Shown: positions 1,651 through 52,830, counted from the first letter of the stretch. The stretch is 64,000 nucleotides of DNA from Acidobacteriota bacterium (GCA_029567505.1 JAKPXO010000168.1:2828-66827), one strand, 5' to 3'. Translations and numbers: made by a program. Notes: a model not told the origin generated them from the sequence alone.

Positions 1651-1800
1651 CCTTCTCCGAGAGCCGCCTTTCCCGCCCGCCGGGGCGGCGAGGGGCCGGG
1701 ACCTCCCGGCTCCCTCCCGCAACGGCGGGCGGGTCCGTCTTCGGGCTCGTAGAATCGCCGCGTGGCAGATCAGCCCCTCGAGCCCGACTCCCCCGCCGCG

Positions 1801-1989
1801 CGGATGCGCCTCGCGCTCGAGCTCTCGGCCGTCGCCGACGCCATGCGCGCGCAGCGTTTCCGCCGGGAGCGCCCGAACGCGAGCGAGGACGAGATCGAGG
1901 CGCTCATGGAAGCGTGGAGGGGCGAGCGGCCCGGCGCCGAGCTCGGAGACTCCGCGGGCCGCCCCGTGCCGTGGCCCCGCCGCCGATGA
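1801..1989 (+). CDS. small helical hypothetical protein (possible antitoxin-like)
   Basis: Track ORF 1762..1989 (GTG start), with an internal ATG at 1801 giving MRLALELSAVADAMRAQRFRRERPNASEDEIEALMEAW. No recognisable RBS. A 24-aa ATGA-overlapping mini-ORF follows. Weak call. Confidence 0.25.
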   Translation, partial: RMRLALELSAVADAMRAQRFRRERPNASEDEIEALMEAWRGERPGAELGDSAGRPVPWPRRR

Positions 1990-2067
1990 GCCCGATCGAG
2001 GCGGCCCTCCGGGCAATTGCAGCGGAGCTGGATCGCGCCGTCGCCGACTTCGGTCCCTAGGGACCGG

Positions 2068-2304
2068 TCAAGCCGTCGGGACGTCGATCCCGCGGAGGAC
2101 GCTCGCCGGGACCCGCGCGATCTCGCGTCCCTCCTCGTCCCGAACGACGAGGCGACCGTCGACGTCCTCCTCCCGGATGCAGCCGAGGACGGAGAGGACG
2201 CCCTTGTCGGCCTCCTCGATCGTCAGGCCCGAGTGCCGCGCGATCCGCCGCGCCACGACGCGCCCGGCCTCCTCCCAGTCGGTGATCCGCCTCGATGGCG
2301 ACAT
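2068..2304 (-). CDS. hypothetical small protein, last gene of the MTase–hicBA string
   Basis: Track ORF of 78 aa (MSPSRRITDWEEAGRVVARRIARHSGLTIEEADKG...), co-directional with and 8 nt downstream of hicA. No family recognised. Confidence 0.4.
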   Translation of the reverse strand: MSPSRRITDWEEAGRVVARRIARHSGLTIEEADKGVLSVLGCIREEDVDGRLVVRDEEGREIARVPASVLRGIDVPTA

Positions 2305-2311
2305 CGCGGCC

Positions 2312-2518
2312 CTACCTCGAATCCCCCCGCCGGGACGGCGCCGGGACGCCGAGGTCCTTGCAGATCTTCAGACAGAGGACTTCGTTGACCTCGCGGTGCC
2401 GAGGAACCGTGGAGGCCTTCCTCTCGCGCGCGTTCACGAAGACGCTGTGTGCGCCCTCTTCACGCAGCAGGGTGCAGCCGTTGCGCTCCAGGTGGCGGAT
2501 CAGGTCGAGGCGTTTCAG
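2312..2518 (-). CDS. hicA: HicA-like mRNA interferase toxin (non-canonical start)
   Basis: Hand translation of the minus strand gives LKRLDLIRHLERNGCTLLREEGAHSVFVNARERKASTVPRHREVNEVLCLKICKDLGVPAPSRRGDSR*. This is a typical HicA (YcfA-like) fold signature. No ATG/GTG/TTG lies in frame upstream of the conserved N-terminus. The first sense codon is CTG, overlapping the hicB TGA (cTGAaa). It is absent from the ORF track. Confidence 0.6.
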   Translation of the reverse strand: MKRLDLIRHLERNGCTLLREEGAHSVFVNARERKASTVPRHREVNEVLCLKICKDLGVPAPSRRGDSR

Positions 2519-2736
2519 GCCGTGAGCCTCAGCGGCTCCCGAATGACGTCGCCGTCGCCGATCTCGATCTCGGACATCGCGCGGTTGGCCTCCAGCACGA
2601 GCGCGACCGCCTCCTCGAGGTTACGCCGTGCCTCCTCGAGCGTCGCACCCTGCGCGTTGGCCCCGGGCAGCTCCTCCACGAAGGCGATGAAGCCCTCCGG
2701 GACCTGGCGATAGACGGCGGTGAACGATACGGTCAT
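2515..2736 (-). CDS. hicB: HicB-family antitoxin
   Basis: MTVSFTAVYRQVPEGFIAFVEELPGANAQGATLEEARRNLEEAVALVLEA matches the HicB/UPF0150 N-terminal domain. An ATG follows the GTG of the track ORF. A GAGG motif lies 7 nt upstream. Confidence 0.7.
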   Translation of the reverse strand: MTVSFTAVYRQVPEGFIAFVEELPGANAQGATLEEARRNLEEAVALVLEANRAMSEIEIGDGDVIREPLRLTA

Positions 2737-2791
2737 CACGTGCCTCAGGCCGATTCTAGTCGGTCAGGCCGCGGCCTCTCGCGGCGCCCGG

Positions 2792-5700
2792 CTACGCGCG
2801 AGGCGCGGCGGCGGCCTGCCAGTGGCGGCCGTCGGAGGCGTCGAACGAGACGAGGAGACCAAGGGAGGCGAGGCTCTCGAGGACGGGCTCCACGTCCTTC
2901 GGCTTCGCCTTCGCGAAGGCCGAAGTCACGGCGGCGAGCGAGCGGGGGGACGGCGCGCGGGCCATCAGGTCGCGGACGGCGGCGATCCGCTCGGGGAGCG
3001 CCTTCGGCCACGGGAGCGGCGCGGCCGGCTTCGCGGCCGGCTCCTCCTCCTCGTCATCTCCGCCCGGAAGAGTCTCCTGCGTCGCCGCCTTCGCGCCGCC
3101 CGGGTTCTGGAACTCGGGGCGGAGCCAGCGGACGAGGCCGCGCCTCTCCTCCTCGGCTCGCTCGGCGTTCAGCGCGACGAGCCGCTCGAGGATCTCCTCG
3201 TCGGTCAGCGTCGACGGCCAGCCGTAGGCGTCGAAGACCGCCGCGTCGAGGTCGTCGTGGATCTGCTTCAGGACGGAGACGAGCCCTTGCTCGTGGATCA
3301 CCTTCTCCTTCGCCGTCAGCGCCTCCCCCGACCGGAGCTTCTCGAGGACGTTGTACATCCCGGTGATCGTGAGGCCGGGATGGAGAGCCTGCTGGCGCTT
3401 GCGGTGCGCGTCGAGGGCTTCGCCGAGGGAGCGGATGAGGGCGGTTTGGGCGGGGGTGGAAGGCGGGAAGGGGAAGAGCAAGAAGCATGGCCCGTTCTGA
3501 TAGCGGGGGTCATTGCCCGCGCCCATTCGCCCGCCTCTCCGAAATGCCCATGTTACATGGACGCGAGAAGAAAGGACGCCGAGGTGCCAGGCATCGTCCG
3601 TGGCGATCCCGGCCAAGGAACCATCAGCCAGGGTTCCCGGGAGTGGAAGGAACACGAACGCTCTGTGTTTTGCGACTTCGGAAGTGGCGATGAACCGTCG
3701 AAGCCCCTTCAACGCCCGCCGCAGCTTCGGCGCGTTCTCGCCGAACAACCACCAGTTTCGCCGCCTCGTATCCCGCTTGTTCTGATCCCTTTCGGGCTTC
3801 ACAAGGTGCAAGAGCCGCTGATAACCGGCAGCGAACTCATTTCGCGCTTGCGCCTCGTCCAACCCGTAGAAATCCACGACGTAACGAACGCCTTCGGTCT
3901 GCGTCAGATCCCGGCCGGCAACGTAGCGCGGAAGAAAGGCCTCGGCGCGATGATCAACGGCGATCAAGTTGTCGCGTTCATCAGAGGTCAGAAGGAACCC
4001 GTCGCCCACGAGTTTGCAGCCCTGAAGGCACAGGTCTTGGTTCGCGACGAGCGCCCGAGTGCCGGAAACCGACGGTCCGGTCGTCAGGTCCGCGTGAATC
4101 GTGCCCTTCCGCGATCTGAAATCGACTCGACTTGAACCGTCATCCAGCTGCTCCTCATCGATGAGCGAGAGGAGGATGCCGGCGCCGGAGGATTGGGAGA
4201 GAACCGTCATCGCGACCCGAACCGCGGCCCCATCCGTCGAATCGACCCACGGGTGATCTGGTACCGCGAAGGCGAGATGGCATGCCGACGAAGCCACGAG
4301 GTGTCGCTGAACCACGCGTCGGTTGAACGTCTGCGTGATGCTGTTCGTCGTGATCAGGCCGAACCGCGTCAGCCTTTCTGCCCGCACCAGCGACGCCGCA
4401 TGGTTCCACCAGTACATGACGAGGTCCGCCGTCTCCGGCACGTCGTCGTGCGCGCGCCTCAGCGCCTCGACGTAGCCGTCCCCCAGCGCCGTCCGCATCC
4501 GCTTGTTCCCCACGAACGGCGGATTCCCCACCACGAACTCCGCCTCCGGCCATTCCGCCTTCCGCGGGTTCACGTACCTTTCCACCACCACCCGCGCGGT
4601 CTCGTCGGGGATCGGCTCCCCCGTCACCGGGCTCGGTTTCGTCGTCTCGCCGTCCCAGCGGGTGACGGGCTTCCCCGCCGCGTCCGTCTCCGGCTCGACG
4701 CGGTCCCAGGCGAGGACGGCGTCGCGGCACTCGATGTTCCCGTAGTCGCGGAGGACGGGCTCGTCGGGGGCGGTGTCGCCGTGGGTCCGGAAGTGCCACT
4801 GGAGCCAGCCGATCCAGAGGACGAGCTCGGCGATCTCCTTGGCCCAGCGCTTCACCTCGATTCCGAGGAGCTGGCGGGGCGTGACGCTGACGCCGTGGAG
4901 GTCGAGGAAGCCGCTCGCCCCGGTCTCGGGGCGCAGGTCGCGGAGGAGCCTCACGACCTCGGCCTCCAGCCGCTTGAAGAGGTCGAGCGTCACGTAGAGG
5001 AAGTTGCCGGTGCCGCAGGCGGGGTCGAGGACGCGCGTCGCGCAGAGCTTCTCGTGGAAGGCGCGGACGGCCCTCTCGGCCTCGGCGATCTTCGTCTCCG
5101 AGCCCTCCTCGACGAGGGTCCTCACGAGCGTCCGCACGACGTCCCACTCGGCGCGGAGCGGCTCCTCGACGGTCGCCCTCACGAGCCGCTCGACGTAGGC
5201 GCGCGGCGTGAAGTGGGCGCCGAGGGCGTGGCGCTCCTTCGGGTCGAGGGCCCTTTCGAGGAGCGTCCCGAAGATGGAGGGCTCGACGTTCTTCCAGTCG
5301 CAGCGGGCCGCCTCGTGAAGCATCTCGAGCTGGCGGCGCGTGAGGGCGAGGGCCTGCGGCGCCGCGAAGAGGCCGCCGTTGAAGCGGAGGAGCTCCCCCT
5401 CGAAGCCGAACGACCCGCCCCGGTTCATCGTCGTCCAGAGCGCCTGGACGTCGGGCGCGAACGTCTCCGGGTGCGGGATCCAGCGCTCGTAGAGGGTCCT
5501 CGTGAAGAGGCGGTTCGGGAGGAGGCCGACGTCCTCGGCGAACATCGTGAAGATGGCCCGCATCAGGAACGTCGCGACCGCCTCCGGGGAATGCCCCGCC
5601 TCGGCCAGCTCCTTCGAGAGGCCGGCGAGGTGCGCCGCGACCTCGCGCGTGACGGCGGTCGTCCGCCGGAGCGGGTCGAGGGAGAGCGGCTCCTCCCAGA

Positions 5701-6214
5701 CGGCGTGGAGCGTCGGGAGGAGCTCCTCGAGGTCGGCGAAGAAGGTGCGGTTCGCGAGGGCGTTCGGGAACGGGTGGTAGACGCGCGAGCCGTCGAAGGA
5801 GGCGTAGAGGTCGACGCAGTGGCCGATGTCGACGACGAGGAGGAACGGGGGCGGGGCGTCGAGCGTCTCGACGTAGCGCTTCGCCTGCCCGAGGGCGTCG
5901 GACATCATCCCGTGCCAGGCGTTCGTTCCGCGCCGCGTCCGGCCCGTCCGGGTCGCGTTCGAGCCCTGCTTGGCCTCGAGCAGGAAGCGTCCGTGCCGGT
6001 AGAGGTCGATCTTCCCGATCGTCGGCCTGCCGGCCGCGTGAAGGAGGACGGCCGGCTTCTCGTAGACGTAGAGGTCCTTCTCCGCGTCGCCCGTCGCCGG
6101 GTCGGGACGGGGCACGCCGAGGAGGTCGCAGAGGTCGTTCAGGAACGGGTCTTTGTTGGCCCGTTCTCCCCCCTCGTTCCCGAGCCAGCGGGCCTGGAAG
6201 GCGGCGATGTCCAT
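2792..6214 (-). CDS. MmeI-family single-chain restriction–modification enzyme (nuclease + N6-adenine MTase + TRD)
   Basis: 1140 aa. The N-terminus carries a PD-(D/E)xK-like motif (IDLYRHGRFLLEAKQG). An AdoMet motif I (VLDPACGTGNFL) and catalytic motif IV (NPPF) are present. A long C-terminal target-recognition region follows. The overall architecture matches MmeI/Type IIL enzymes. Confidence 0.8.
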   Translation of the reverse strand: MDIAAFQARWLGNEGGERANKDPFLNDLCDLLGVPRPDPATGDAEKDLYVYEKPAVLLHAAGRPTIGKIDLYRHGRFLLEAKQGSNATRTGRTRRGTNAWHGMMSDALGQAKRYVETLDAPPPFLLVVDIGHCVDLYASFDGSRVYHPFPNALANRTFFADLEELLPTLHAVWEEPLSLDPLRRTTAVTREVAAHLAGLSKELAEAGHSPEAVATFLMRAIFTMFAEDVGLLPNRLFTRTLYERWIPHPETFAPDVQALWTTMNRGGSFGFEGELLRFNGGLFAAPQALALTRRQLEMLHEAARCDWKNVEPSIFGTLLERALDPKERHALGAHFTPRAYVERLVRATVEEPLRAEWDVVRTLVRTLVEEGSETKIAEAERAVRAFHEKLCATRVLDPACGTGNFLYVTLDLFKRLEAEVVRLLRDLRPETGASGFLDLHGVSVTPRQLLGIEVKRWAKEIAELVLWIGWLQWHFRTHGDTAPDEPVLRDYGNIECRDAVLAWDRVEPETDAAGKPVTRWDGETTKPSPVTGEPIPDETARVVVERYVNPRKAEWPEAEFVVGNPPFVGNKRMRTALGDGYVEALRRAHDDVPETADLVMYWWNHAASLVRAERLTRFGLITTNSITQTFNRRVVQRHLVASSACHLAFAVPDHPWVDSTDGAAVRVAMTVLSQSSGAGILLSLIDEEQLDDGSSRVDFRSRKGTIHADLTTGPSVSGTRALVANQDLCLQGCKLVGDGFLLTSDERDNLIAVDHRAEAFLPRYVAGRDLTQTEGVRYVVDFYGLDEAQARNEFAAGYQRLLHLVKPERDQNKRDTRRRNWWLFGENAPKLRRALKGLRRFIATSEVAKHRAFVFLPLPGTLADGSLAGIATDDAWHLGVLSSRVHVTWAFRRGGRMGAGNDPRYQNGPCFLLFPFPPSTPAQTALIRSLGEALDAHRKRQQALHPGLTITGMYNVLEKLRSGEALTAKEKVIHEQGLVSVLKQIHDDLDAAVFDAYGWPSTLTDEEILERLVALNAERAEEERRGLVRWLRPEFQNPGGAKAATQETLPGGDDEEEEPAAKPAAPLPWPKALPERIAAVRDLMARAPSPRSLAAVTSAFAKAKPKDVEPVLESLASLGLLVSFDASDGRHWQAAAAPRA

Positions 6215-6301
6215 GAAGGGCGCGGAGGCGCGGGGGGAGGTTAGCAGAGGGGCGCCGGCCGGCGCCCCGCAAAGCCACGTCCCGGGGGACGGTCTCGACG
6301 C

Positions 6302-7201
6302 CTACATTCCCATACCGGAGCCCGATCCCATCCCCAGGCCCGAGTTCATCATGCTCCCCATCACGACGTAGCCGTCGTTCGTCAGGTTGTCGTTCACGAC
6401 GGCGTAGGCCATGACCATCCCGCCCGCGCCGCGGTCGAGGCGGACCCGGAGCTGCAGGCCGGCACCGCCCGACGGGAAGCGCGAGGCGACGCCAGCGAGG
6501 ACGTCGTCCACCTGCGTCGACGAGTAGCCGGCGATCCGGAAGGGCCAGCTCTTCGGTCCCGCTCCGGCGGGAGCGCTGCCGTCGGCGTCGACGACGTCCA
6601 GCGTCCCGGTCACGGCCGTCGCGGTCGTGTTCACGACGGTGGCGTTCACGCGGGCGCCGGGCTGAGGCAGGAGGCCGAGCATGACCATCTCGAACTGGCG
6701 GTCGTCCCAGGTGCCCGCCATCGGCATCGCCGTGAGCGACATGCGCTGGGGCATCCCCATGAACGCGAGACCGTACGCTCCGGCCCCCGATTGGTTGTAG
6801 ACGCGGGCCACCGCGGCGATCGGGACCGTGGCGCTGATCCGGAGGTTCCCGAACGCTTTCGTCAGGCCGAGCTGCGCGGAGAGGAGGTCCGGGAGGAAGG
6901 TCACGGGCTGCGAGAGCGCCACAGTGGCCGTCACGGCCGGATCGGCGGTGGCGGCGTTCGCCGGGTGGAACGCGATCGTCGCCGTGCCGGTGCCGCTCGC
7001 GCGGATCCAGAGGTCGGTGACGAAGAAGGCGCCGTTCTTCCCGTCGCCTCGGACTCCGGCCGGGACGATGAGGGATTCGGAGCCATTCGACATCATGTCG
7101 CCGGGGCCGTTCCACATCCCACCTCCGCCCATCTGCGCGAGGGCGGGGGACGTGAGCAGCGTCAGGACGAGGAGGCTGGCCGGGCCGAGCGCCTTCTTCA
7201 T
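6302..7201 (-). CDS. secreted hypothetical protein with Met/Gly-rich termini (possible Cu-binding)
   Basis: Signal peptide MKKALGPASLLVLTLLTSPALA. Met-rich N-terminal region (MGGGGMWNGPGDMMSNG) and C-terminal tail (MGSMMNSGLGMGSGSGMGM). Its ATG overlaps the stop of the cytochrome c gene (ATGA). Confidence 0.6.
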   Translation of the reverse strand: MKKALGPASLLVLTLLTSPALAQMGGGGMWNGPGDMMSNGSESLIVPAGVRGDGKNGAFFVTDLWIRASGTGTATIAFHPANAATADPAVTATVALSQPVTFLPDLLSAQLGLTKAFGNLRISATVPIAAVARVYNQSGAGAYGLAFMGMPQRMSLTAMPMAGTWDDRQFEMVMLGLLPQPGARVNATVVNTTATAVTGTLDVVDADGSAPAGAGPKSWPFRIAGYSSTQVDDVLAGVASRFPSGGAGLQLRVRLDRGAGGMVMAYAVVNDNLTNDGYVVMGSMMNSGLGMGSGSGMGM

Positions 7202-7815
7202 TTCATTCTCCTTTCAGGCGAGGACAGAGCCGTCGAGCCGGAGCCGGCGAGGAACGCCTCGATCTGGCGGGCCTTCTCGAACTCGGCGGGGCTCTTCGGG
7301 TTCAGCGCTTCCATCTCCGCGAGCTCCGAGGGCGTCAGCCCGGGAAGGTGGCGGATGAAGTGAACGAGCTCCCACGTGCCGACGTCTTCCTTGGGCGTCC
7401 CGTCGCCCCAGGCGGGCATGCCGGTGAGGCGGATTCCGTTCCGGATGATCGAGAAGAGCTCTCCGTCGGTGAGGCGCTGGGTCTCGCCGCCGCGCATGTC
7501 GGGCGCGCGCGGATAGAGGCGCTGGCCGATCGGCGTCCGGCCGCTCCCGTCGTTTCCGTGGCAGCCGGCGCAGTGGTCGGCGAAGTGGCGGCGCGCCCGG
7601 GTGAGCACCTCGGGGCTCGCGGCGACGGGGTTCGGAACACGGCGTATCGCCTCCGGGGTCGCCCACCGCCGGAAAGCCCGAGCCACGACCTCCTCGGCCC
7701 CGGACGGCTCGTCTCGCGCGCTGAAGCCGCGACGGACGGCGGCGGCGAGCGTGTATCCGCCCCACACGGCAGCGAGGGCCGCCGCGACCAGGAGGACTCG
7801 TGTCGTCCGCCTCAC
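7198..7815 (-). CDS. class I c-type cytochrome (one CxxCH)
   Basis: N-terminal membrane anchor or signal peptide. A single haem motif CAGCHG is followed by a Met ligand region (GMPAWG). Confidence 0.7.
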   Translation of the reverse strand: MRRTTRVLLVAAALAAVWGGYTLAAAVRRGFSARDEPSGAEEVVARAFRRWATPEAIRRVPNPVAASPEVLTRARRHFADHCAGCHGNDGSGRTPIGQRLYPRAPDMRGGETQRLTDGELFSIIRNGIRLTGMPAWGDGTPKEDVGTWELVHFIRHLPGLTPSELAEMEALNPKSPAEFEKARQIEAFLAGSGSTALSSPERRMK

Positions 7816-7843
7816 GGGTCCCCTCCCGCCGTCCGCCTCGTCA

Positions 7844-8263
7844 TCACGCCTTCTTCTTCTCGAGGTGCATGCCGCACTTCGGGCACTTGCCCGGGCCCGC
7901 GCTCTTCACTTCCGGGTGCATCGGGCAGGTCCAGACGACCTCCTCCGACGCTCCCATCCGGACCACCTTCGCTTCGAGCCCCGCCTTCCCGTGGGCGACC
8001 TCGACGGCCACGCGCAGCCCGGCCTTCAGGTCGGTCCTCTTCGCCTCCGTCGTCCCACGGAAGTAGGTGGTCGCGGAGGTGAGCGTGACCGACACCGTCT
8101 TCCCGTCCGGGTCGGCGACGTCGAGGCGATTCCCCTCGATGTGCGCCACCGTGCCGAGGATCGGCTCCATCCCGTGAGCGTGGCCGTCGTGCGCCGTGGC
8201 GAGACCCGGCGCGACGCCGAGCGTGAGAGCGAGGGCCGTGAGGGCAAGGGTCCTTCCGCGCAT
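7844..8263 (-). CDS. periplasmic protein with C-terminal heavy-metal-binding domain (CPMHPE...CPKCGM)
   Basis: Signal peptide, then the C-terminal motif CPMHPEVKSAGPGKCPKCGMHL. The same motif is found at the N-terminus of the CusB/CzcB adaptor encoded downstream. Confidence 0.7.
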   Translation of the reverse strand: MRGRTLALTALALTLGVAPGLATAHDGHAHGMEPILGTVAHIEGNRLDVADPDGKTVSVTLTSATTYFRGTTEAKRTDLKAGLRVAVEVAHGKAGLEAKVVRMGASEEVVWTCPMHPEVKSAGPGKCPKCGMHLEKKKA

Positions 8264-8417
8264 GTCGAATCCTCCTGTCGAGGGGCGTCGGCCGCCGGCG
8301 GCGCCCGCGGCCCCTCTCGTGGCCGGAAAAATACGGCTCCGACCTTAGAGAGCGATTAGAGCGGCCCGAAGCACCGTCTCTCATCGGTTTCCAAGGTTCG
8401 CCTCCCATCCTCGGGCC

Positions 8418-8927
8418 ATGTGCACGGCGACCCGTCCGGATGCTCTGCTCCTGGTCGAGGACGACGTCTCGCTCGCCATCTGTGTCGCGGAGTTCCTGTC
8501 GAGACGCGGACACGACGTCGAGCTCGCTTTCGATCTCGCCTCCGCGTCGTGCGCCCTCGCTCGGCGGGCCTGGCCGGCCGTCGTCACCGACGTCGACCTC
8601 TCGGGCCCGAGTGGCGCGGAAGGCCTGGAGGTCGTGACGGCTGCGGCGGCGCTGCGGCCGCGCCCCGCGATCGTCGTCTGGAGCGGGTGCGTGAGCGAGC
8701 GCCTCCGGCGCGAGGCGCTCCGGCTCGGCGCGGACGCCGTCCTGGAGAAGGGGAGCCTGTGGGAGCTCGAGGCGGAGTTCGCTCGTCAGCTCGCGAGACG
8801 GCAGCCGACCGGGGCGGTTGATGGAGCGGACCGGATGCGGGACCGACCCGCCGCGGAAGGAGGCAGCGAACGCGGGAGACCGGAACGCCCGGCGGAGGCG
8901 GCCACGGTGGGGGGAGGCGCGCGGTGA
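8418..8927 (+). CDS. stand-alone response-regulator receiver (REC) protein
   Basis: LLVEDD acidic pocket, a phospho-acceptor Asp in VVTDVDL, and a conserved Lys (LEKG). No output domain. The stop overlaps the next start (GTGA). Confidence 0.7.
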   Translation: MCTATRPDALLLVEDDVSLAICVAEFLSRRGHDVELAFDLASASCALARRAWPAVVTDVDLSGPSGAEGLEVVTAAAALRPRPAIVVWSGCVSERLRREALRLGADAVLEKGSLWELEAEFARQLARRQPTGAVDGADRMRDRPAAEGGSERGRPERPAEAATVGGGAR

Positions 8928-9595
8928 GCGCGACCGAGCCGTTCGTCCCGGCGCTGAGGTTCCATGCCCTCACCGGTCTCTACGACCCCCTGATGTCTTT
9001 TCTCGTGAACGAGGCGACGCTCCGGCGCCGCACGTTGAGCCTCCTCCGGCCGGAGCCCGGAGAGAGGGTCCTCGACCTGGGGTGCGGCACGGGCTCCCTC
9101 ACGGTCCGGCTCAAGCAGGAGTTCCCGCGGGTCGAAGTGGTCGGTTGCGACGTGGACCCGGGAGCGCTCGGTCTGGCCCGGCGGAAGGCCGCCGAGGCCG
9201 GGGTCTCGATACGGTGGTGCCTCGGGCCCGCCCACGACCCGCCGCTCCCGGACCGATCGGTGGATCTCGTCACCTCGACGCTGCTCTTCCACCACCTCCG
9301 GCCGGACGGCAAGCGCGCTGCGCTGGCCGCCGCCCTGAGGCTGCTCGAGCCGGGCGGACGGCTCGTCGTCGTCGACTTCACGAGGCCATCGGGTTTCCTT
9401 CGTCGGATCGCCTTCTCCGGAGTCCGGCTCCTCGACGGTCTCGAGGTCACGGCGGACCACGCGGCGGGGCGGTTCGCGGAGATCGTGGAGTCCGCCGGGT
9501 TCGAACGCGTGACGGAGGCCGATCGCCTCGACACGCCCGTCGGCACGATCTCCTTCCTCACCGCGGCCCGCCGCCGCGAGGGTCGCGGCGGATGA
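8924..9595 (+). CDS. class I SAM-dependent methyltransferase (Methyltransf_11/25-like)
   Basis: Motif I VLDLGCGTG and the LLEPGGRLVV motif. It is coupled at both ends by 4-nt overlaps. Confidence 0.75.
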   Translation: MSATEPFVPALRFHALTGLYDPLMSFLVNEATLRRRTLSLLRPEPGERVLDLGCGTGSLTVRLKQEFPRVEVVGCDVDPGALGLARRKAAEAGVSIRWCLGPAHDPPLPDRSVDLVTSTLLFHHLRPDGKRAALAAALRLLEPGGRLVVVDFTRPSGFLRRIAFSGVRLLDGLEVTADHAAGRFAEIVESAGFERVTEADRLDTPVGTISFLTAARRREGRGG

Positions 9596-10536
9596 GGAGC
9601 CTCCGCCTCCGCCTCCGCGCCTGGGTCGTGGTGACGACGACCGTCGCCGTCGGAGCGGTGACGGCGGCGGGAAGCCTCGAGGAGCGACGGCAGATCCGAC
9701 GCGCCGAGTCGGCGTACATCGGTGCGTTCCTCGAGCACCTGGCTGCGATGCCGGAGCTTCGGAGCGACTCTTCCACGGTGCAAGCGCACCTCGGTGCCCT
9801 GTCGGGCTCCCTCGCGAGGGCCGGGGGAAAGGTCGCGCTCGTAGCCTTGAAGCCTTCCGATCCGGTCCCGCTCGGCGCCGGGGCCGTCGCCTGCCAGCGT
9901 CTTTCCCTCTCGGACGGCGAGTGGGCGCTGCACTACTGGAGCGACGGCCGATACGTCCGGGCGCAGGTCCGGCGGGCGTTGCTCACGCGGCTCCTGCTCG
10001 CCGTCGGCCTCGTCCTCGCCATCGTCGCAGGGCTCGAATGGATGCTCCGTCGAAACCTCCTCCGACCGCTCTCGACGATCTCGCGCCAGATCGAGCGGAT
10101 CACGGAAGGCGGAGGCTGGCTCGCGCACGTTCCCGACACGGATGAGGAGCTCCAGCGGCTGACACGAGCGCTTCGGGCGCTCGGACCCGGGCTCGAGGAG
10201 CAGACTCGCCAGTGGATCGAGACCGAGCGACGCGTCGCCGCGGCGTCGGTCCTCGCGGGAGTCCGGGCGGTGACCCTCGAGCCGCTTCGATCCGCGCAGC
10301 TCGAGCTGAGCCTGGCGGAGGCGGCTCTCACCACTGACGCCGCGACGAAGACGCGGCTGCGACGCGCTGCCCGTGCCGTCCACCGGTTGACCGAGACTCT
10401 GCGCGACGCGGAGGCCACCTGGTTCCGCGCTCGTGGCGGCGCCGGCGTCTCGACGGACGAGAGCCGTGCCCGAGCGGCGAAAGGGGAGGCCCGTGCTCTT
10501 CGCCCGACGGCCTCAGGGAGCGTGGAGCCCGGCTGA
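9592..10536 (+). CDS. membrane sensor with HAMP domain and degenerate HisKA-like region, no ATPase domain
   Basis: ATG overlaps the upstream TGA. Two TM segments flank a ~120-aa periplasmic region. HAMP (MLRRNLLRPLSTISRQIERITEGGG) is followed by a coiled coil. A HisKA-like stretch VTLEPLRSAQLEL has Thr where the phospho-His should be. No HATPase_c domain. Confidence 0.6.
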   Translation: MRSLRLRLRAWVVVTTTVAVGAVTAAGSLEERRQIRRAESAYIGAFLEHLAAMPELRSDSSTVQAHLGALSGSLARAGGKVALVALKPSDPVPLGAGAVACQRLSLSDGEWALHYWSDGRYVRAQVRRALLTRLLLAVGLVLAIVAGLEWMLRRNLLRPLSTISRQIERITEGGGWLAHVPDTDEELQRLTRALRALGPGLEEQTRQWIETERRVAAASVLAGVRAVTLEPLRSAQLELSLAEAALTTDAATKTRLRRAARAVHRLTETLRDAEATWFRARGGAGVSTDESRARAAKGEARALRPTASGSVEPG

Positions 10537-10869
10537 GGCCCGCTCCCCTTGCCAGCGCCGCCCGGCGAGCCCCGCTTCCGCGAGGCCGACCTTCCGCATC
10601 AGCGAGGCTACGTCGCGGCGACACGTGTCATCGTGACGACGGCCTCGACGAGAGCGGCACCGACCAGGCTGACGTCTACGGAGGAGGCCACAGGGCGGCG
10701 GCGAGCCCAGGTCGTGAGACGCTCTCCGGCCGACGGACGAACGGCATTCACGGGGCGTAGCACGCGACGGCGGCGAATCTCGGCGGCGAGGGCCCGGGCG
10801 GCGGAAGACCGGGCCGGGGGGCCGCTTCGCCTGGATCCCGCGACTGACGGTCGAGAGGGCTTGCCCGGC

Positions 10870-11085
10870 GGCTCGGTTGGGGCGGAAGGGCTTCTCCCGG
10901 CCGAGCTCCTGGCCCATCCTCCTGACGCTGTTGCCGTCGCGTGCCGGAAAGGGGCTCCGGCCCCTGAGGATCTCGCACAGCAGAATCCCGAGCGAGAAGC
11001 CGTCGAAGGCGGTCTCGGCCACGGCGCCTCAGGCCCGCTCGGGTGAGGTGTACGAGGGGGCCCCGGCGACGCCGCGGGCCTCAGC
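10870..11085 (-). pseudogene. remnant of a Ser/Thr protein kinase (activation-loop to alphaF region) interrupted by in-frame TGA
   Basis: The minus strand reads ...GVAGAPSYTSPERA*GAVAETAFDGFSLGILLCEILRGRSPF, aligning with kinase subdomains VIII–IX (GTPxYMAPE...DIWSLGVILYELLTGRPPF). The TGA is at 11029-11031. No HRD/DFG upstream and no sensible C-lobe downstream. Confidence 0.45.
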
Positions 11086-11359
11086 GGCGCCGAGGCGTGC
11101 GGCCGTCCTCGAGCGTCTCTTCCTCGTCCATCACCCCGTCCTTCAGGGTCGCGGCTGTTCCGCCGGCGTTCGCCGGGCCGCCCGGAGGGCCGCGCGAAGT
11201 CGAGCCGGGCGCGACGAAAGCGGGGGGCTGGCGGCGTCCGCTCCCCCTCGGAGACCTCGAGGCTCTGCGAAGGGACGGGGACGCCGCCGCCGCCTCGGGG
11301 GTGACTGCTTTGCCGAGCTCGGCGCGACCCCGAGGCGGGGGCAGAGCCCGGGCTGCCCG

Positions 11360-11884
11360 TTAGTGCTCTCCGTGTCCGGACCGTCCGGAGCCGCACCCGC
11401 CGCCTCGTCTCGGTGGCGCGGCGTCATCGTGTCCTTCGCCCCCGACCCCAGAGGCGACGCCGAGCGTCCGTTCCGCGGCCGCGATCGCGACGTCGAAGCT
11501 CTCGGCGAATGCCGGCAGCGACGCGTCTGCGAGGCCACGGAGGTTCGCGACGCTCTCGCGGGCGGCGGCCGACACCTTCCCCGCGAACCCGGAGCCACCG
11601 TCCCCCGTGAAGTCCGCGTCCACGAGCGCGGCCCGGAGCCCTCGATGCACGCCGGCATACTCGTCGACCGCACGGTTCAGACGATCGAGGTCGCGTGAGC
11701 GGGCGGCTGCCCGAACGGCCCGCAGTGCGGACGCCTCATCGCGGAGCAGAGCCCGAGCGCCGCGGGCGGAGGCGGACGGGGGCTCGGTCCGCGGTGCCGG
11801 CCCCGGCTCGCCGTGAACGTGCTCCTGTGCCGGTGCCGAGGCGTTGACCAGCAGGACGAAGAGGAGGATCGCCGGGGTGCGCAT
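11360..11884 (-). CDS. secreted hypothetical protein with His-rich ends
   Basis: Signal peptide MRTPAILLFVLLVNASAPAQ, then EHVHGEP. The C-terminal tail is GEGHDD...GCGSGRSGHGEH. It is the last gene of the cus string. Confidence 0.5.
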   Translation of the reverse strand: MRTPAILLFVLLVNASAPAQEHVHGEPGPAPRTEPPSASARGARALLRDEASALRAVRAAARSRDLDRLNRAVDEYAGVHRGLRAALVDADFTGDGGSGFAGKVSAAARESVANLRGLADASLPAFAESFDVAIAAAERTLGVASGVGGEGHDDAAPPRRGGGCGSGRSGHGEH

Positions 11885-11895
11885 CGTTCGCCTCC

Positions 11896-12375
11896 TCAGA
11901 AGACGACGTTCTTGTGGTCCATGCCGCCGCAGCCGTTCTTCGCGAACGGGCGGTTGCAGCCGCCCTTGAAGCAGGCGTCACCCGTGTAGCCGGCCGGCCC
12001 GATGAACTTTACCCAGTCGAGGACCGCCGACTTGAGCTCGGCGGCGTTCGCCCCCTTCACGACGAGCATGTAGTTCGAGAGGCCCCAGATCGTCATCGCC
12101 ATGTTGCACGGGCAGCAGCAGGTCTTCATCGAGAACTTCTTGCAGCAGACCGTCGGGATGGCGGAGAGGACGTCATCTTTGATCTTCTCCTGCTCCGGCG
12201 CGAGGCTCATGTCGGCGTACCGCATGAACTCGAGCGTCTGGGCCTTCACGTCCTTGAAGACGGGCGTCTTCGAGGCGGCCCTGGACGGGGCGGTCGGGCC
12301 GGCCAGGGCCGAAGCGGAGAGGACGGCGGCCGCGAGGGCGGCGGTCCAGCGAGGGAGGGGGGAGGCGTGATTCAT
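11896..12375 (-). CDS. secreted Cys-rich hypothetical protein (CCKKFSMKTCCCPC motif)
   Basis: Signal peptide. Clustered cysteines (VCCKKFSMKTCCCPC, CFKGGC, GCGG). It lies 40 nt downstream of the cusA stop on the same strand. Confidence 0.55.
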   Translation of the reverse strand: MNHASPLPRWTAALAAAVLSASALAGPTAPSRAASKTPVFKDVKAQTLEFMRYADMSLAPEQEKIKDDVLSAIPTVCCKKFSMKTCCCPCNMAMTIWGLSNYMLVVKGANAAELKSAVLDWVKFIGPAGYTGDACFKGGCNRPFAKNGCGGMDHKNVVF

Positions 12376-12414
12376 GTCGTGACTCCTGCTTCCGTCAGTT
12401 CGGTTCGATCGGTG

Positions 12415-15400
12415 TCAGGCGGGAAGTGCCGCGCCCTCGAGGCTCGGCTCCGAGTGATCGGGCCCGGGTTTCGGGAGGCTTCGCTGCTTCCAGAGCATGT
12501 AGATGGCGGGATAGACGAGGAGCTCCAGGAGAAACGACGTCGCGAGGCCGCCCACCATCGGGGCGGCGATCCGCTTCATGACGTCGGAGCCGGCCCCGAC
12601 CGACCACATGATCGGGATGAGCCCGAGCATCGCGGCGAAGACGGTCATCGCCTTCGGGCGGACGCGCTTCACGGCGCCGTGGATGATTGCCTCGACCAGC
12701 TCGGCCTTGTTCCGCAGGAGACCCCTGGCCTTCGCCTCGTCGTAGGAGAGGTCGAGGAAAAGCAGCATGAAGATGCCCGTCTCGGCGTCGAGGCCCATGA
12801 GGGCGATGATCCCGACCCAGACGGCGATCGACGTGTTGTAGCCGAGGATCCAGAGGAACCAGACCGCGCCGATGATCGAGAAGGGGACGGCGAGGAGGAC
12901 GATGAACGTCTTCATCGCCGACTTCGTGTTCATGTACATCAGGAGCCAGATCAGGACGAGCGTGATCGGGATGACGACCTTCAGGCGTTCCCGCACGCGG
13001 ATCATGTTCTCGAACTGGCCGCTCCAGACGAGCGTGTACCCCTGCGGGAGCGTGACCCGCTCCGCGACCGCCTTCTTCGCTTCCTCGACGAAGCCGCCGA
13101 CGTCCTCCTTCGAGGTGTCGAAGTCGACGTAGACGTAGCCCGAGAGGAGCCCGTTCTCGTTCCGGATCATCGAGGGGCCCTGGACGAGCCGGATGTCGGC
13201 GAGCTGGCCCATCGGGACCTGGGCTCCCGACATCGTCGGGACGAGGACCCGCTCGAGGCGCGAGACGTCCTCGCGAAGCTCGCGGGGGTAGCGGAGGGAG
13301 ACGGAGTACCGCTCGCGCCCCTTGATGACCGTCGTGATCGGCTCGCCTCCGATCGCCGTCATCACGACCATGTTCGCGTCGTCGACCGTCAGGCCGTAGC
13401 GGGCGAGCTGGTCGCGCTTGAGCTCGAAGTCGATGAAGTAGCCGCCCGCGACCCGCTCGGCGAACGCCGATCGCGTGGCCGGTACGCTCCTCACGGCGGA
13501 CTCGACCTCCTTGCCGATCCGCTCGATCTCCTCGAGGTCCGAGCCGAAGACCTTGATCCCGATCGGCGTGCGGATCCCGGTCGAGAGCATGTCGATGCGG
13601 GCCTTGATCGGCATCGTCCAGGCATTCGTCGTCCCTGGGATCTTCAGCGCCCGGTCCATCTCGTCGACCAGCTCCTCGTGGGAGATCCGGTCCCGCCAGA
13701 CGTGCCGGAAGACCGACGCGAGCCACTCGGGCGCCCACCCGCTGTACCAGCGTTCGCGGGGGCGCCACTCGCTCTCGGGCTTGAGGATGACGGTCGTCTC
13801 CATCATCGAGAACGGGGCCGGGTCGGTCGCGCTGTCGGCGCGGCCGGCCTTCCCGAAGACGCGCTCGACCTCCGGGAACGATCGCAGAATCCGATCCTGC
13901 ACCTGCAGGAGACGGTCGGCCTCGGTCACCGAGATGCCGGGCAGGGTCGTCGGCATGTAGAGGATGCTCCCCTCGTAGAGGGGCGGCATGAACTCCGAGC
14001 CGAGCCTCAGGAAGACCGGCACCGTCGCCGCCATCGCGAGGAGCGCGGCCGCGATCGTCGTCTTCGGGTGCCTCAGGACGAGGCGGCAGGGGGGCTCGTA
14101 GATCCGGTGGAGGAGGCGGCTGACGGGGTGCTTCTCCTCCGCGTAGTACGTCCCGACCGTGATCTGGTTGACGACCCAGGCGAGCCACTTCGGCCGGAAG
14201 CGGAAGTAGTCCATCCGGGCGAAGAGCATCCGCATCGCGGGGTCGAGGGTGATGGCGAGGAACGCCGCGATCGCCATCGCGAGGTTCTTCGAGTAGGCGA
14301 GCGGCTTGAAGAGGCGCCCTTCCTGGTCGACGAGCGTGAAGACGGGGAGGAAGGCGACCGCGATGACGAGGAGCGAGAAGAAGACGGACGGCCCGACCTC
14401 CATGAGGGCCTCGAGACGGACCTTGTGGAAGTCTCCGGGCCTCCCCCCGTCGTTCCAGAGCTGGAGCTTCTTGTAGGCGTTCTCGACCTCGACGATCGCC
14501 CCGTCGACGAGGACGCCGATCGAGATCGCGATGCCCGCGAGCGACATGATGTTGATCGTCAGCCCCATCTGCCCGAACGGGATGAAAGCGAGGACGACCG
14601 AGATCGGGATCGTGAGGATGGGGACGATCGCGCTCGGGAAGTGCCAGAGGAAGATGAGGATGATGATCGAGACGACGATGATCTCCTCGATCAGCTTGGC
14701 CTTCAGGTTCTCGACCGAACGCTCGATCAGGTCGGAGCGGTCGTAGGTCGTGACGACCTTGACGCCCTTCGGCAGGGACGGCTCGATGTCCTTCAGCTTC
14801 TTCTTCACCCGCTCGATGACGTTGAGGGCGTTCTCCCCGCTCCGCATCACGACGATGCCGCCGACGACATCCCCCTTGCCGTCGAGGTCCGCGATCCCGC
14901 GCCGGATCTCGGGGCCGAGCGAGACCCGCCCGACGTCTCCGATGGTGAGCGGCGTACCGCGTTCGTTCGTCTTCAGGACGACCTGCTCGAGGTCCTTCAC
15001 GCTCTTCAGGTACCCGCGCCCGCGGACCATGTACTCCCGGCCGGAGAGCTCGATGAGCCGCCCGCCCACCTCCTCGTTGCTCATCCGGATCGCCTCGGCG
15101 ACGCGGGAGAGCGGCACGCCGTAGGCGGAGAGGACGTTCGGGTCGATCGTGACCTGGTATTGCCGCTGCGTCCCGCCGACCGTGGCCACTTCCGCCACGC
15201 CCGGCACGGACTGGACCGCGTACTTGAGGAACCAGTCCTGATACGACCTCAGCTCGTCGGTCGTGTTCGTCCCCGACTCGTCGACGAGGGCGTACTGAAA
15301 GACCCACCCGACGCTCGTCGCGTCGGAGCCCATCTCGGTCTTGACCCCCTGGGGGAGGCTCCCCTGGATCTTGGAGAGGTATTCGAGGACGCGCGAGCGG

Positions 15401-49966: not shown

Positions 49967-50079
49967 TGCGCCCGACGGGGATCCAGTTTCTCTCCCCGCG
50001 TCGGGGCTCGAACGATCGCAAGCGAACACTCGTCCCGCGGGGCTCGAAACAAGCCCGAGGCCGGGCAAGAGGAGGAGTC

Positions 50080-52830
50080 ATGCCACGTCCGATCTCCGTC
50101 GTCACAGGAGCCGTTCTGATCCTGCTGTTGGGCCTCTCGGGCATCGCGAGCGCCCAGGGCACCGTCACTGGCAGCGTCCAGGGAATCGTCCGCGACTCCG
50201 AAGGGGGCGTCCTTCCCGGCGCCACCGTCACCGCCGTCTCGGGCGCTCTCGTTCGCGGTCGCATGACGACCACGACCGACGCACGCGGCGGCTGGCGCTT
50301 CCCCGCGCTCCCGCCGGGAACCTACGCGATCGAGGCCGAGCTGCAGGGCTTCCGGAAGATCCGCCGTGACGACGTGCGGGTCCGCCTCGGGCAGGCGATC
50401 GCCGTCGACCTCGTCCTCGCGCTCGAGAGCGTCGCCGCCGAGGCCATCGTCACGGCGGAGGCACCGCTCGTGAGCGTTGTCGAGAACAGGGTCTCGACGA
50501 GCTTCGGCGAGGACTACATCAGCCGGCAGGCCGTCCCGCGCAACTACTACCAGGTGATCACGACGGCCCCGGGCGTGAACGCCGACACCGGAACGAGCGG
50601 CAGCGCGATCCTCGCCTACGGCGGGACGAGTGAGAGCCAGAACGCCTTCACGCTGGACGGCGTGAACGTGGCCGATTCGGGCTCAGGCCAGCACTGGGTT
50701 CTGCCGAGCATCCAGTGGATGGAGGAGATTCAGATCGGCGGCCTCGGCGCAAACGCCGAGTACGGCGGCTACACGGGCGGCGTCATCAACGGCGTCACGA
50801 AATCGGGCGGCAACGAGTTCAAGGGGGCCCTCGAGGCGTACTACCAGCCCGACTCTTTCACCTCGGACAACTCGCCCGACACCGAGGACGAAACCTTCGA
50901 GTTCGAGAACTACGCCGTCAGCCTCGGCGGGCCGGTCGTGAAAGACCGGCTCTGGTTCTTCGCGAGCGCCGAGTACTGGCACCAGGAGACGACCCCGGTC
51001 GGCGCCACCGCCACCTCCGATCGGAAGATCCCCCGATTCCTCGGGAAGCTGACATACCAGGTGAGCGAAAAGAACCGCGTGTTCGGAATGTTCGAGTACG
51101 ACCACGTCGAGAACGAACGGCGCGGAATCGACGCCTACACCTTCCCCGAGGCGGCCCGCAAGCAGGACGGGCCGGGCGTCTCCTTCTCCGTGAACTGGGA
51201 GTCCATCCTCAACTCGTCCAACTTCCTCAACGTGAAGCTGACGGGCTACGACGGGAACGATGACTACCTCCCCTACAACGGCACCGACACGCCAGGCCAC
51301 GAGGACCTCTACGGCCACACCGGTTGGAGCCTCGTGAACGCGAAGATGCAGGATCTCTCCCATCGGCACCTCGTGACGGGCGACGCCTCGTGGAGCCTCT
51401 TCAAGGACGGCCTCTTCGGCAAGGCCGACTCGCATTCCTTCAAGTTCGGTGCCCTCTACGAGAAGGCCTCCACGACCGACGAGTGGCGGCGAAACGGCGG
51501 CTTCACCTACTACGACGACTCGACTCTCTGCCCCGGCGACACCGAGGCGGAGCAGATCGCGAACTACCTCCGCGACCCGAGCTGCGGCTGGTACGAGCGC
51601 TCGACCGGCTACGGCGAATACGAGGTCCACGCCGAGCACACCGGCTACACGTTCTACGCTCAGGACTCCATCCGCCTGAGCCGCGTGACGATCAACGCAG
51701 GCCTCCGCTACACGAACTACAGCGCCGGCTGGCGCGAGGGTTTCGGGAACCCCGACGTCTACGAGGTCGACTTCGTCGACCCGCGGATCGGATTCTCCTG
51801 GGACGTCCGCGGCGACGGACGCTGGGCGATCAAAGCGCACTGGGGCCGCTACCACTCCTCGATGTACACCTACCTCTTCGACCGCGAGGTCTCCGGCCAC
51901 GCCTCGGTTCCTGACGGCGACTGCTACTGGGACGGCTCGGCCTGGGGCGACTGCTCGTCCTCCACGCCCGACGAGGCGCCGATCGGCGACGTCGACCACC
52001 CGTACGTCGACGAGACCCTCTTCACCGTCGAGCACCAGCTCGGCCGAGACTCGTCGATCGGCGTCGACTTCATCGACCGTCGCTTCCGCAGCCTCATGGG
52101 CCTCTACAACACGAACAGCGACTACGAGCGGGTCACCGGCATCGCGAATCCCTTCGGAGGCGGCGACCTCGAGGTCTGGACGCTGAACGGCGACCCCGTC
52201 TGGTCACTGACGACCGACAACCCCGGCTACCGAGACTACGACTCCCTCGTCCTCCGGTACGACAAGCGGCACGCGAACGGCTGGCAGCTCCGCTCCTCCG
52301 TCGTCTGGACGGACCTCAAGGGGAACGTCCTGAAGAACAATGGCTACGCGCCCGAGCTCGAGGACCGCAACGGCCTCGTCAACGCCGACGGGCGGATGGA
52401 CTCCTCCTTCAACGAGTGGGAGTTCAAGGTGTCCGGCGCGGTCGACCTTCCGCTCGGGATCGTCGCGAGCGGCCAGTACACCTACCTCTCCGGCACCTAC
52501 TGGACGCCCTACGGCGACGTCCGCTCTTACGTCGACGGCAACTTCTACAGCGGCCGGAACGTCTTCCTCACCGAACGCGGATCCGAGAAGCTCCCGGCGC
52601 GGAACATCCTGGACCTCCGGCTCGGATGGGGGATGAACGTCCGCGGGCCGCTCCGCCTCGAGCTCTCCCTCGAGTGCTTCAACGTCCTCAACTCGGACAA
52701 GCCCCTCACCGTCGACAACTACTACGGCCGCTACCGCTCGGGCAGCTGGTCCGAGTACGCGGCCTTCGGCGAGGCTCTCAGCATCGAGGCCCCGCGCCAG
52801 TTCCGGGCCGGGCTCCGCCTGATCTTCTAG
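50080..52830 (+). CDS. Oar-like TonB-dependent receptor with N-terminal CarboxypepD_reg domain
   Basis: RBS GAGGAGGAG. Signal peptide. A CarboxypepD_reg-type beta-sandwich (GTVTGSVQGIVRDSEGGVLPGATVTA...TDARGGWRF), a plug, and a long barrel ending in the C-terminal Phe (RLIF*). Confidence 0.85.
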   Translation: MPRPISVVTGAVLILLLGLSGIASAQGTVTGSVQGIVRDSEGGVLPGATVTAVSGALVRGRMTTTTDARGGWRFPALPPGTYAIEAELQGFRKIRRDDVRVRLGQAIAVDLVLALESVAAEAIVTAEAPLVSVVENRVSTSFGEDYISRQAVPRNYYQVITTAPGVNADTGTSGSAILAYGGTSESQNAFTLDGVNVADSGSGQHWVLPSIQWMEEIQIGGLGANAEYGGYTGGVINGVTKSGGNEFKGALEAYYQPDSFTSDNSPDTEDETFEFENYAVSLGGPVVKDRLWFFASAEYWHQETTPVGATATSDRKIPRFLGKLTYQVSEKNRVFGMFEYDHVENERRGIDAYTFPEAARKQDGPGVSFSVNWESILNSSNFLNVKLTGYDGNDDYLPYNGTDTPGHEDLYGHTGWSLVNAKMQDLSHRHLVTGDASWSLFKDGLFGKADSHSFKFGALYEKASTTDEWRRNGGFTYYDDSTLCPGDTEAEQIANYLRDPSCGWYERSTGYGEYEVHAEHTGYTFYAQDSIRLSRVTINAGLRYTNYSAGWREGFGNPDVYEVDFVDPRIGFSWDVRGDGRWAIKAHWGRYHSSMYTYLFDREVSGHASVPDGDCYWDGSAWGDCSSSTPDEAPIGDVDHPYVDETLFTVEHQLGRDSSIGVDFIDRRFRSLMGLYNTNSDYERVTGIANPFGGGDLEVWTLNGDPVWSLTTDNPGYRDYDSLVLRYDKRHANGWQLRSSVVWTDLKGNVLKNNGYAPELEDRNGLVNADGRMDSSFNEWEFKVSGAVDLPLGIVASGQYTYLSGTYWTPYGDVRSYVDGNFYSGRNVFLTERGSEKLPARNILDLRLGWGMNVRGPLRLELSLECFNVLNSDKPLTVDNYYGRYRSGSWSEYAAFGEALSIEAPRQFRAGLRLIF

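Follow-up and report, generated by a model that had tools for sequence, protein, structure and literature searches.

A predicted stand-alone MmeI-family restriction-modification enzyme with a recombinationally replaced specificity cassette, linked to a hicBA pair, in an Acidobacteriota genome

The locus

The subject of this analysis is a restriction-modification gene with its immediate neighbours in a 64,000-nucleotide stretch of DNA from an Acidobacteriota bacterium (GCA_029567505.1, JAKPXO010000168.1:2828-66827), hereafter the window. The gene encodes a protein of 1140 amino acids (aa) that very probably is a single-chain enzyme of the MmeI family, and comparison with closely related alleles directly shows that a specificity cassette within it has been replaced by recombination. 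The GC content of the window is about 71% and spurious open reading frames (ORFs) are many, so that genes were selected by the GC content of their codon positions. This procedure picked four real minus-strand genes, namely those for the 1140-aa protein, a 74-aa protein, a HicA-like frame and a 78-aa protein. These genes and the features of the enzyme discussed below are the following.

2792-6214, minus strand: predicted MmeI-family Type IIL/IIG restriction-modification gene, 1140 aa plus stop codon
2515-2739, minus strand: hicB, 74 aa from the GTG at 2739, with the ATG at 2736 (73 aa) as the likelier start
2312-2518, minus strand: predicted hicA toxin gene, 68 aa, in the next frame to hicB, with a CTG at 2518-2516
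2068-2304, minus strand: 78-aa ORF, a lineage-restricted flanking chromosomal gene
5966-6010, minus strand: PD-ExK nuclease motif, I69-D70...E80-A-K82-Q83, in the same numbering as MmeI
5000-5026, minus strand: S-adenosylmethionine (SAM)-binding motif I, DPACGTGNF, aa 397-405, conserved in homologs
4514-4525, minus strand: N6-adenine methyltransferase (MTase) motif IV, NPPF, aa 564-567, conserved in homologs
4331-4348, minus strand: TNSITQ, aa 623-628, invariant motif at one bound of the cassette
3464-3475, minus strand: FPFP, aa 914-917, invariant motif at the other bound of the cassette
3453-4321, minus strand: exchanged specificity cassette, aa ~632-921, delimited by blastn of alleles, protein identity and GC content at third codon positions (GC3)
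2795-3025, minus strand: C-terminal winged-helix-like domain, aa 1064-1140, from the secondary structure and predicted local distance difference test (pLDDT) values of an AlphaFold2 (AF2) model
2336-6255, minus strand: co-transferred module comprising the enzyme gene, hicB and most of hicA, delimited by blastn against the related locus L002

Replacement of the specificity cassette

The replacement is observed directly in a syntenic locus, L001 (encoding P0002), the flanks of which are 98.3% identical to those of the window. In a blastn comparison, the enzyme gene itself is 96.5% identical over 6253-4317 and 96.9% identical over 3453-2309, with no detectable DNA similarity between 4317 and 3453. 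The same boundaries (4325 and 3451) delimit the cassette in L002 (encoding P0005), which is found in another genomic context and shows 88-90% DNA identity over 6255-4325 and 3451-2336. A third relative, L003 (encoding P0006), also in a different context and lacking hicBA, is 86% identical over the whole gene and has a target-recognition domain (TRD) of the same type as that of the window. At the protein level, the identity of P0002, P0003, P0004, P0005 and P0007 to the window protein is 71-99% per segment outside aa 601-930 (at least 84% in every such segment save the C-terminal tail of P0007) and 42-56% inside. Set against the cassette itself, protein identity is 92-99% outside and again 42-56% within. 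Both crossovers are found shortly after an invariant motif, a few codons past TNSITQ (aa 623-628) in one case and past FPFP (aa 914-917) in the other, so that the exchanged unit comprises the end of the MTase domain and the whole TRD. Exchange of the recognition domain had been proposed in the initial annotation of this DNA on the grounds of its low GC content. Allele comparison now demonstrates such exchange, with two amendments: the TRD is only a part of what is exchanged, and low GC alone is no sign of recent import, as discussed below.

Six TRD types, with 41-51% mutual identity, are found among seven enzymes whose backbones are 87-98% identical. Across 60 family members, the identity of the backbones has essentially no correlation with that of the TRDs (r = 0.09 for 1770 pairs); where the backbones are at least 90% identical (21 pairs), the median identity of the TRDs is 45%, and in some pairs the TRDs are more alike than the backbones. 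Even between the window and L003, which share a TRD type, divergence at 4-fold degenerate sites amounts to 0.61 in the TRD vs 0.22-0.25 in the backbone. The allele, pairwise-identity and 4-fold-site comparisons thus indicate that backbone and cassette have separate histories.

Intragenomic, phase-variable switching was considered and rejected: tblastn of eight alleles, self-blastn and a repeat search detect no second (silent) TRD copy, shufflon, recombinase or flanking inverted repeats in the window, and therefore the exchange is one between genomes. The crossovers lie in the conserved DNA that encodes the invariant TNSITQ and FPFP motifs, and near-identical backbones within one population therefore carry unrelated TRDs. 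Because a single polypeptide performs both reactions, each swap would change restriction and modification together.

Identity and architecture of the enzyme

The 1140-aa protein matches four Pfam profiles above the gathering cut-off, namely MmeI_N (62 bits), MmeI_hel (52.7), MmeI_Mtase (119.6) and MmeI_TRD (39.3), and is matched over its full length by the PADLOC profile REase_MTase_IIG (PDLC03627, 1425 bits). A phmmer search against the PDB retrieves a single sequence match, MmeI (5HR4, E = 4e-35, query aa 192-972). A Foldseek search started with an AF2 model of the protein, which was built with 60 homologs (pLDDT 83, predicted TM-score (pTM) 0.74), likewise identifies 5HR4 first (E = 8e-32, TMt 0.74), with CamA, M.BseCI, DrdV, PglX and LlaGI far behind. 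The nuclease motif, NPPF and recognition region that had been described in this ORF are all present where they had been placed, and the proposed assignment to MmeI-type single-chain enzymes is borne out by the four Pfam domains, the PADLOC Type IIG match and the best hit in both sequence and fold.

Alignment of the PD-ExK motif to D70, E80 and K82 of MmeI is one of the published criteria of the family (PMC2731913), next to a helical arm, a gamma-class m6A MTase, a TRD that ends at FPFP and C-terminal helices, and the motif of the window protein aligns with these residues. Among the 60 homologs, D70, E80, A81, K82 and Q83 are invariant, and the possibility raised at the outset that the N-terminal motif would be missing on alignment, as in a PglX-like protein, has not materialized. 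The nuclease and MTase domains are joined by a helical spacer (helices at aa 159-265 in the model, alignment to residues 165-434 of 5HR4). It is followed by a gamma-class N6-adenine MTase core with DPACGTGNF (D397, A399, C400, G401, G403, N404 and F405 invariant in the same homologs) and NPPF (G563, N564, P565 and P566 invariant), and by a TRD that ends at FPFP, after which the model contains further helices (aa 921-1024). Similarity extends along MmeI and the overall fold is the same, as judged by phmmer and Foldseek, and the enzyme has no separate companion DNA methyltransferase gene among its neighbours; the neighbourhood contains no adjacent DNA MTase, BREX or DISARM gene. In the model, the C-terminal portion (aa 1029-1140, 2795-3130) has a disordered linker of acidic character at aa 1037-1063, followed at aa 1064-1140 by a domain of the order helix-helix-helix-strand-strand that resembles a winged helix. 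The long-form clade of the MmeI family (~1130-1160 aa), which has both of these elements, occurs in a very wide range of phyla. Conservation peaks in the helical region at aa 931-1040 (3095-3424), which is 81-90% identical in homologs that retain only ~52-55% in the nuclease domain.

On the model of the homologs MmeI and RpaB5I, the TRD would read an asymmetric site of 6-7 bp, the MTase core, which is of the gamma class, would use SAM to methylate one adenine in one strand only, and the PD-ExK domain on the helical arm would cut unmethylated DNA ~20/18 nt downstream. For the family, N6-methyladenine (m6A) modification of a single strand, SAM-dependent cleavage ~20/18 nt downstream and stimulation by a second site have been described (PMC2731913), and the same biochemistry would be expected of the window enzyme.

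The GC trough over the cassette

A drop in GC content over the recognition segment, to ~58% against ~70% elsewhere, had been reported for the window. The dip is real, 3480-4400 being the lowest-GC 920-nt stretch of the window, but its GC content is 62.1% and the window mean is 71.1% (sd 2.8%), with the lowest 300-nt windows inside the stretch at 59-60%. The effect is almost wholly confined to third codon positions: GC3 is ~0.97 over aa 1-600, 0.63-0.78 over aa ~600-930 and at least 0.93 thereafter. A fit with two change-points delimits aa 632-945 (nt 3380-4321; GC3 0.72 vs 0.966 outside, Fisher p = 5e-30), and the change-point at nt 4321, the left edge of the dip, falls at the point where homology breaks off (4317-4325). 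Two other regions of lowered GC (0.65-0.68) are present in the window, one at 12000-15000, in an AcrB/CusA-like efflux pump gene, and one at 50000-52000.

The trough is not a peculiarity of the window gene. A sample of 83 loci was examined, in which 3 close relatives were joined by 80 loci (L004-L083) that each represent one species and are drawn from many phyla. In 81 of these loci GC3 is lower over the TRD-equivalent codons than over the backbone of that gene, with a mean difference of -0.20, and the averaged GC3 profile shows a trough over aa ~570-920. At 4-fold sites, the 80 species average 0.589 GC over the TRD and 0.82-0.87 over each of the five other segments; the TRD has the smaller value at 69-79 of 77-80 loci (Wilcoxon p ~ 1e-13 to 1e-14). 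Given that the trough is family-wide, a low-GC TRD by itself is no mark of recent import here. Low conservation was rejected as the sole cause of the low GC3, since the C-terminal tail, which equals the TRD in divergence (33-49% identity), shows no trough.

Two causes may be considered, possibly both acting: continual re-import of AT-richer mobile DNA, and a process operating in place, e.g. escape from GC-biased gene conversion (gBGC). That the low GC3 arises in place and not from imported DNA, either through fast evolution or weak codon selection or through drift towards AT in a partnerless segment that escapes gBGC, appears somewhat unlikely. Such an origin would be compatible with the family-wide and one-directional nature of the offset, although repeated import of AT-richer mobile DNA would likewise give a one-directional offset, and the two routes are not mutually exclusive. 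It would fit, too, the observations that TRD GC follows the GC of the host flanks (r = 0.67) and that in low-GC hosts the TRD is near the flanks in composition, with the backbone above them; against these stand the equally divergent C-terminal tail without a dip and the replacement of the cassette shown directly by the alleles.

The AT shift at synonymous sites of the cassettes in about 80 species, with the five other segments GC-rich, is tentatively taken to reflect a distinct evolutionary regime of recognition cassettes, a proposal that we consider possible but far from assured. In one form of this regime, the cassettes may constitute a horizontally circulating pool that is constantly re-imported and never ameliorates; in the other, they may be "recombination shadows" in a frequently converting gene, exposing gBGC within a single ORF. 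A targeted literature search found no description of the family-wide pattern, which is weak evidence of novelty.

The hicBA pair

The initial annotation had identified a hicB-then-hicA pair downstream of the enzyme gene, and Pfam searches corroborate this identification. The hicB product matches UPF0150 (28.5 bits, cut-off 27.3) and HicB_lk_antitox (19.1 bits), with no other domain, and has PDB matches to TTHA1756, TTHA1013 and HicB (6g1c). The hicA product matches HicA_toxin with 41.9 bits (cut-off 27) over profile positions 3-58 of 58; a phmmer search against the PDB finds no HicA structure for this toxin, so that the assignment rests on Pfam. It contains a histidine in the context EGAHSVF, a putative catalytic residue whose position would be the one expected from the GSNH motif of Escherichia coli HicA.

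The order of the E. coli genes is hicAB, the reverse of that found here, and this difference had been singled out. The observation is correct but the order is unremarkable, the Class 2 hicBA being the most common bicistronic arrangement (PMC10865869). In Class 2, a HicB of 63-103 codons without a DNA-binding domain is encoded upstream of a HicA of 60-85 aa, the genes overlap, and the pairs are often found in defence islands (PMC10865869). The window contains a HicA_toxin protein within this size range (68 aa) and, upstream, a small HicB (73-74 aa) without a DNA-binding domain, the gene of which overlaps hicA. Judged by these sequence features, the pair is a Class 2 hicBA.

The hicA frame has no canonical start before the GTG at 2437, which would give a protein of 41 aa. 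The Pfam match begins at the CTG at 2518-2516, which forms a 4-nt CTGA overlap with the TGA of hicB, as had been noticed at the outset, and is preceded by a GAGG 8 nt upstream. This CTG is shared by 10 assemblies, i.e., the window, L001 and eight further ones that are 99.4-100% identical to the window, and thus is not a sequencing error; L002 has a TTG at the same position. Initiation of hicA would occur at the weak CTG (TTG in the relative), coupled to the hicB stop, and such weak coupled initiation would be expected to yield a low toxin:antitoxin ratio. A TAGAAT hexamer ~20 nt upstream of the hicB start (within 2740-2791, minus strand) is retained in the window, L001 and L002; it is a candidate -10 element, not called by the consensus scan, that may give hicBA its own promoter.

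It is conceivable, if unlikely, that hicA is translationally silent and decaying behind a mutated start, so that the pair amounts to an orphan HicB antitoxin and not to an addiction or defence module. This explanation draws on the CTG in place of the TTG of L002, on the lack of another in-frame canonical start before 2437 and on the loss of hicA elsewhere in the lineage, where L092 keeps only a 3' remnant with the histidine replaced by glutamine. However, the hicA ORF is intact in all 10 assemblies, the GAGG and the 4-nt overlap suit termination-reinitiation coupling, and the histidine of the GAHS context is retained. Relative to L002, hicA differs by 17 synonymous and 9 non-synonymous substitutions (20 and 7, respectively, in hicB), and two genome records at NCBI (GCA; L087 and L089) include the 68-aa HicA in their gene tables.

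The mobile module, the 78-aa ORF and the variable site

L002 shares with the window only 6255-2336, embedded in an unrelated neighbourhood of PIN, AbiEii and Uma2 genes, which indicates that the enzyme and hicBA move as a module of ~3.9 kb. The shared segment ends inside hicA. In the 80 distant loci of the family, neither hicBA nor the 78-aa ORF follows the enzyme gene, and the link between the enzyme and hicBA accordingly is lineage-specific.

The 78-aa ORF has only 16 detectable homologs, of 75-93 aa, all in this lineage; it yields a sub-threshold match to DUF6894 and no NCBIfam, PADLOC or PDB match. In L092-L095, its homolog is located beside the same 2-oxoacid:ferredoxin oxidoreductase (POR) operon, with an AbiEii/DUF6922 pair in the place of the enzyme, and in L096 the homolog occurs in yet another context. 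L003 encodes it 18 nt after the enzyme gene, without hicBA, and L002 has the enzyme and hicBA without it. The contexts in L092-L096 and L003 characterize the 78-aa ORF as a neighbour at a variable hotspot and not a part of the islet. A role as a controller protein was dropped given that the gene occurs also without the enzyme.

The initial annotation had counted the 78-aa ORF as a component of a compact defence/addiction islet, and this part of it does not stand: homologs adjoin the same POR operon without the enzyme, and the module shared with L002 ends in hicA. That the enzyme, hicBA and the 78-aa ORF constitute one functional operon is accordingly quite improbable. The four genes share one orientation, with a spacing of 52 nt between the enzyme gene and hicB, -4 nt between hicB and hicA and 7 nt between hicA and the 78-aa ORF, and the close spacing in L003 points in the same direction; the distributions in L092-L096 and L002 and the 80 distant loci that have neither hicBA nor the ORF downstream speak against it.

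On the evidence of its gene content, the site is a variable defence/toxin-antitoxin hotspot. In L092, which has neither the enzyme nor hicB, all that is left of hicA is its 3' end, at positions 5835-6000 (equivalent to window 2470-2312), where Gln stands in place of the putative catalytic His; an AbiEii/DUF6922 pair that adjoins the efflux operon occupies the place of roughly 2470-12400 of the window. In the window, a gene for an Rv0078B-like antitoxin (1762-1989, plus strand) without an AbiEii toxin partner is located ~78 bp from the 78-aa ORF, and in L003 an AbiEii-Rv0078B pair adjoins the homolog of this ORF. L001 contains, at 5212-5961, an insertion of ~750 bp (a MerT-like gene and a 110-aa ORF) just upstream of the enzyme gene, between the equivalents of window 6301 and 6253.

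The wider neighbourhood of the window locus includes, at higher coordinates and thus upstream, genes for a 299-aa protein, cytochrome c, a heavy-metal-binding protein (HMBD), a response regulator and a small-molecule-type Methyltransf_25 protein. Downstream are the Rv0078B-like antitoxin and POR genes. A CusABC-like efflux operon is located further away. The 299-aa ORF (6302-7201, minus strand) has a strong coding signal (GC3 0.93) and no Pfam, NCBIfam or PADLOC match; together with the cytochrome c neighbour, it is kept in L001 and L084-L090. The window contains no tRNA gene, and no tRNA or integrase gene was found at the module borders.

Overall reading and comparison with known systems

Taken jointly, these observations make it highly probable that the gene encodes a stand-alone long-clade (~1140 aa) enzyme of the MmeI family (Type IIL, also IIG/IIS), that its cassette was swapped by recombination, that it moves with a Class 2 hicBA, that the 78-aa ORF is outside this unit and that the host is an uncultured Thermoanaerobaculia-like bacterium, the source-named close relatives of the enzyme being labelled Thermoanaerobaculia.

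The enzyme shares with MmeI and RpaB5I the order of PD-ExK, helical arm, gamma-class m6A MTase, TRD up to FPFP and C-terminal helices (PMC2731913; PMC4833311) and, with MmeI, the D70/E80/K82 numbering and the lack of a companion methyltransferase, MmeI being its best match in sequence and fold. Unlike MmeI (919 aa), to which it is ~20% identical, it is longer by ~220 aa and includes the highly conserved helical region at aa 931-1040, the acidic linker and the winged-helix-like domain; RpaB5I, a member of the family, has 1184 aa (PMC2731913). Allelic TRD diversity has been described for Type IIG genes of Campylobacter jejuni and Streptococcus thermophilus (PMC2853133) and for the analogous pair LlaGI/LlaBIII (PMC3553950). 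As in those cases, near-identical catalytic backbones carry unrelated TRDs in close genomes, and the specificities of restriction and modification would change together. The present case differs in that the lineage is an uncultured, environmental one, that six TRD types occur on 87-98% identical backbones with breakpoints at TNSITQ and FPFP, and that the cassette is AT-shifted at synonymous sites across the MmeI family. The hicBA pair resembles other Class 2 pairs in the small upstream HicB, the overlap and the size of HicA, and differs from them in the CTG start of the toxin gene (TTG in a relative) and in its linkage to, and co-transfer with, a Type IIL gene.

Several findings weigh against this joint reading. 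Pfam MmeI_C has no match in the 1140-aa protein, and the last ~100 aa, i.e., the linker and the winged-helix-like domain, have no counterpart in MmeI. Members of the family are often disrupted (PMC2731913). The enzyme gene of L003 (5677-9118) seems to be frameshifted, with a 980-aa call despite full-length homology, and that of L091 (1-1559) is split by a gap at 2.6x coverage; each could reflect natural inactivation or an assembly error. For the cassette, no donor was identified: a cassette-only search gave fragments of at most 503 aa, with identity of at most 74% over a part and 61% at best over most of the cassette, and the closest TRD relative, P0006, is 76-82% identical. As CTG is a very poor initiator, translation of hicA may be minimal or absent. 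Finally, a scan of 1700-6700 for promoter and terminator consensus sequences detected no sites.

The BREX proteins PglX/BrxX (PDB 8C45, 9EWZ) have a related MTase-TRD architecture and are distant fold matches, and PglX, too, methylates one strand of an asymmetric site; unlike the window enzyme, PglX lacks an N-terminal PD-ExK domain and works with other BREX proteins, none of which is found at the window locus. That the protein is an MTase only (YeeA- or PglX-like) or part of a BREX- or DISARM-type system is very improbable: close homologs are publicly annotated as "class I SAM-dependent DNA methyltransferase" and partial PADLOC matches to the DrmMI and PglX profiles cover the MTase/TRD half, but these matches are confined to aa ~560-1020, MmeI_N is present with D70/E80/K82 invariant, and homologs without PD-ExK are the inactive ones (PMC2731913). 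The BREX/PglX assignment itself was excluded by a score of 18.9 bits against the NCBIfam BREX-6 PglX model (cut-off 900) and the absence of BREX or DISARM partner genes nearby.

Implications

An MmeI-family enzyme, allelic replacement of a TRD and a Class 2 hicBA are each already known, and only the family-wide GC trough at synonymous sites over the cassette is mildly unexpected. The locus provides a clean natural example of specificity change in a single-chain restriction-modification enzyme, in which a cassette of ~870 bp is swapped at two invariant motifs. The six variants on near-identical backbones within one environmental lineage are material for the engineering of specificity and for linking TRDs to the motifs that they read. 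The trough may mark exchangeable recognition modules and offers a small test case for what maintains high GC content in bacteria. If recognition cassettes indeed follow an evolutionary regime of their own, either form of it would supply a simple compositional signature by which swappable specificity modules could be found in genes for restriction and defence.

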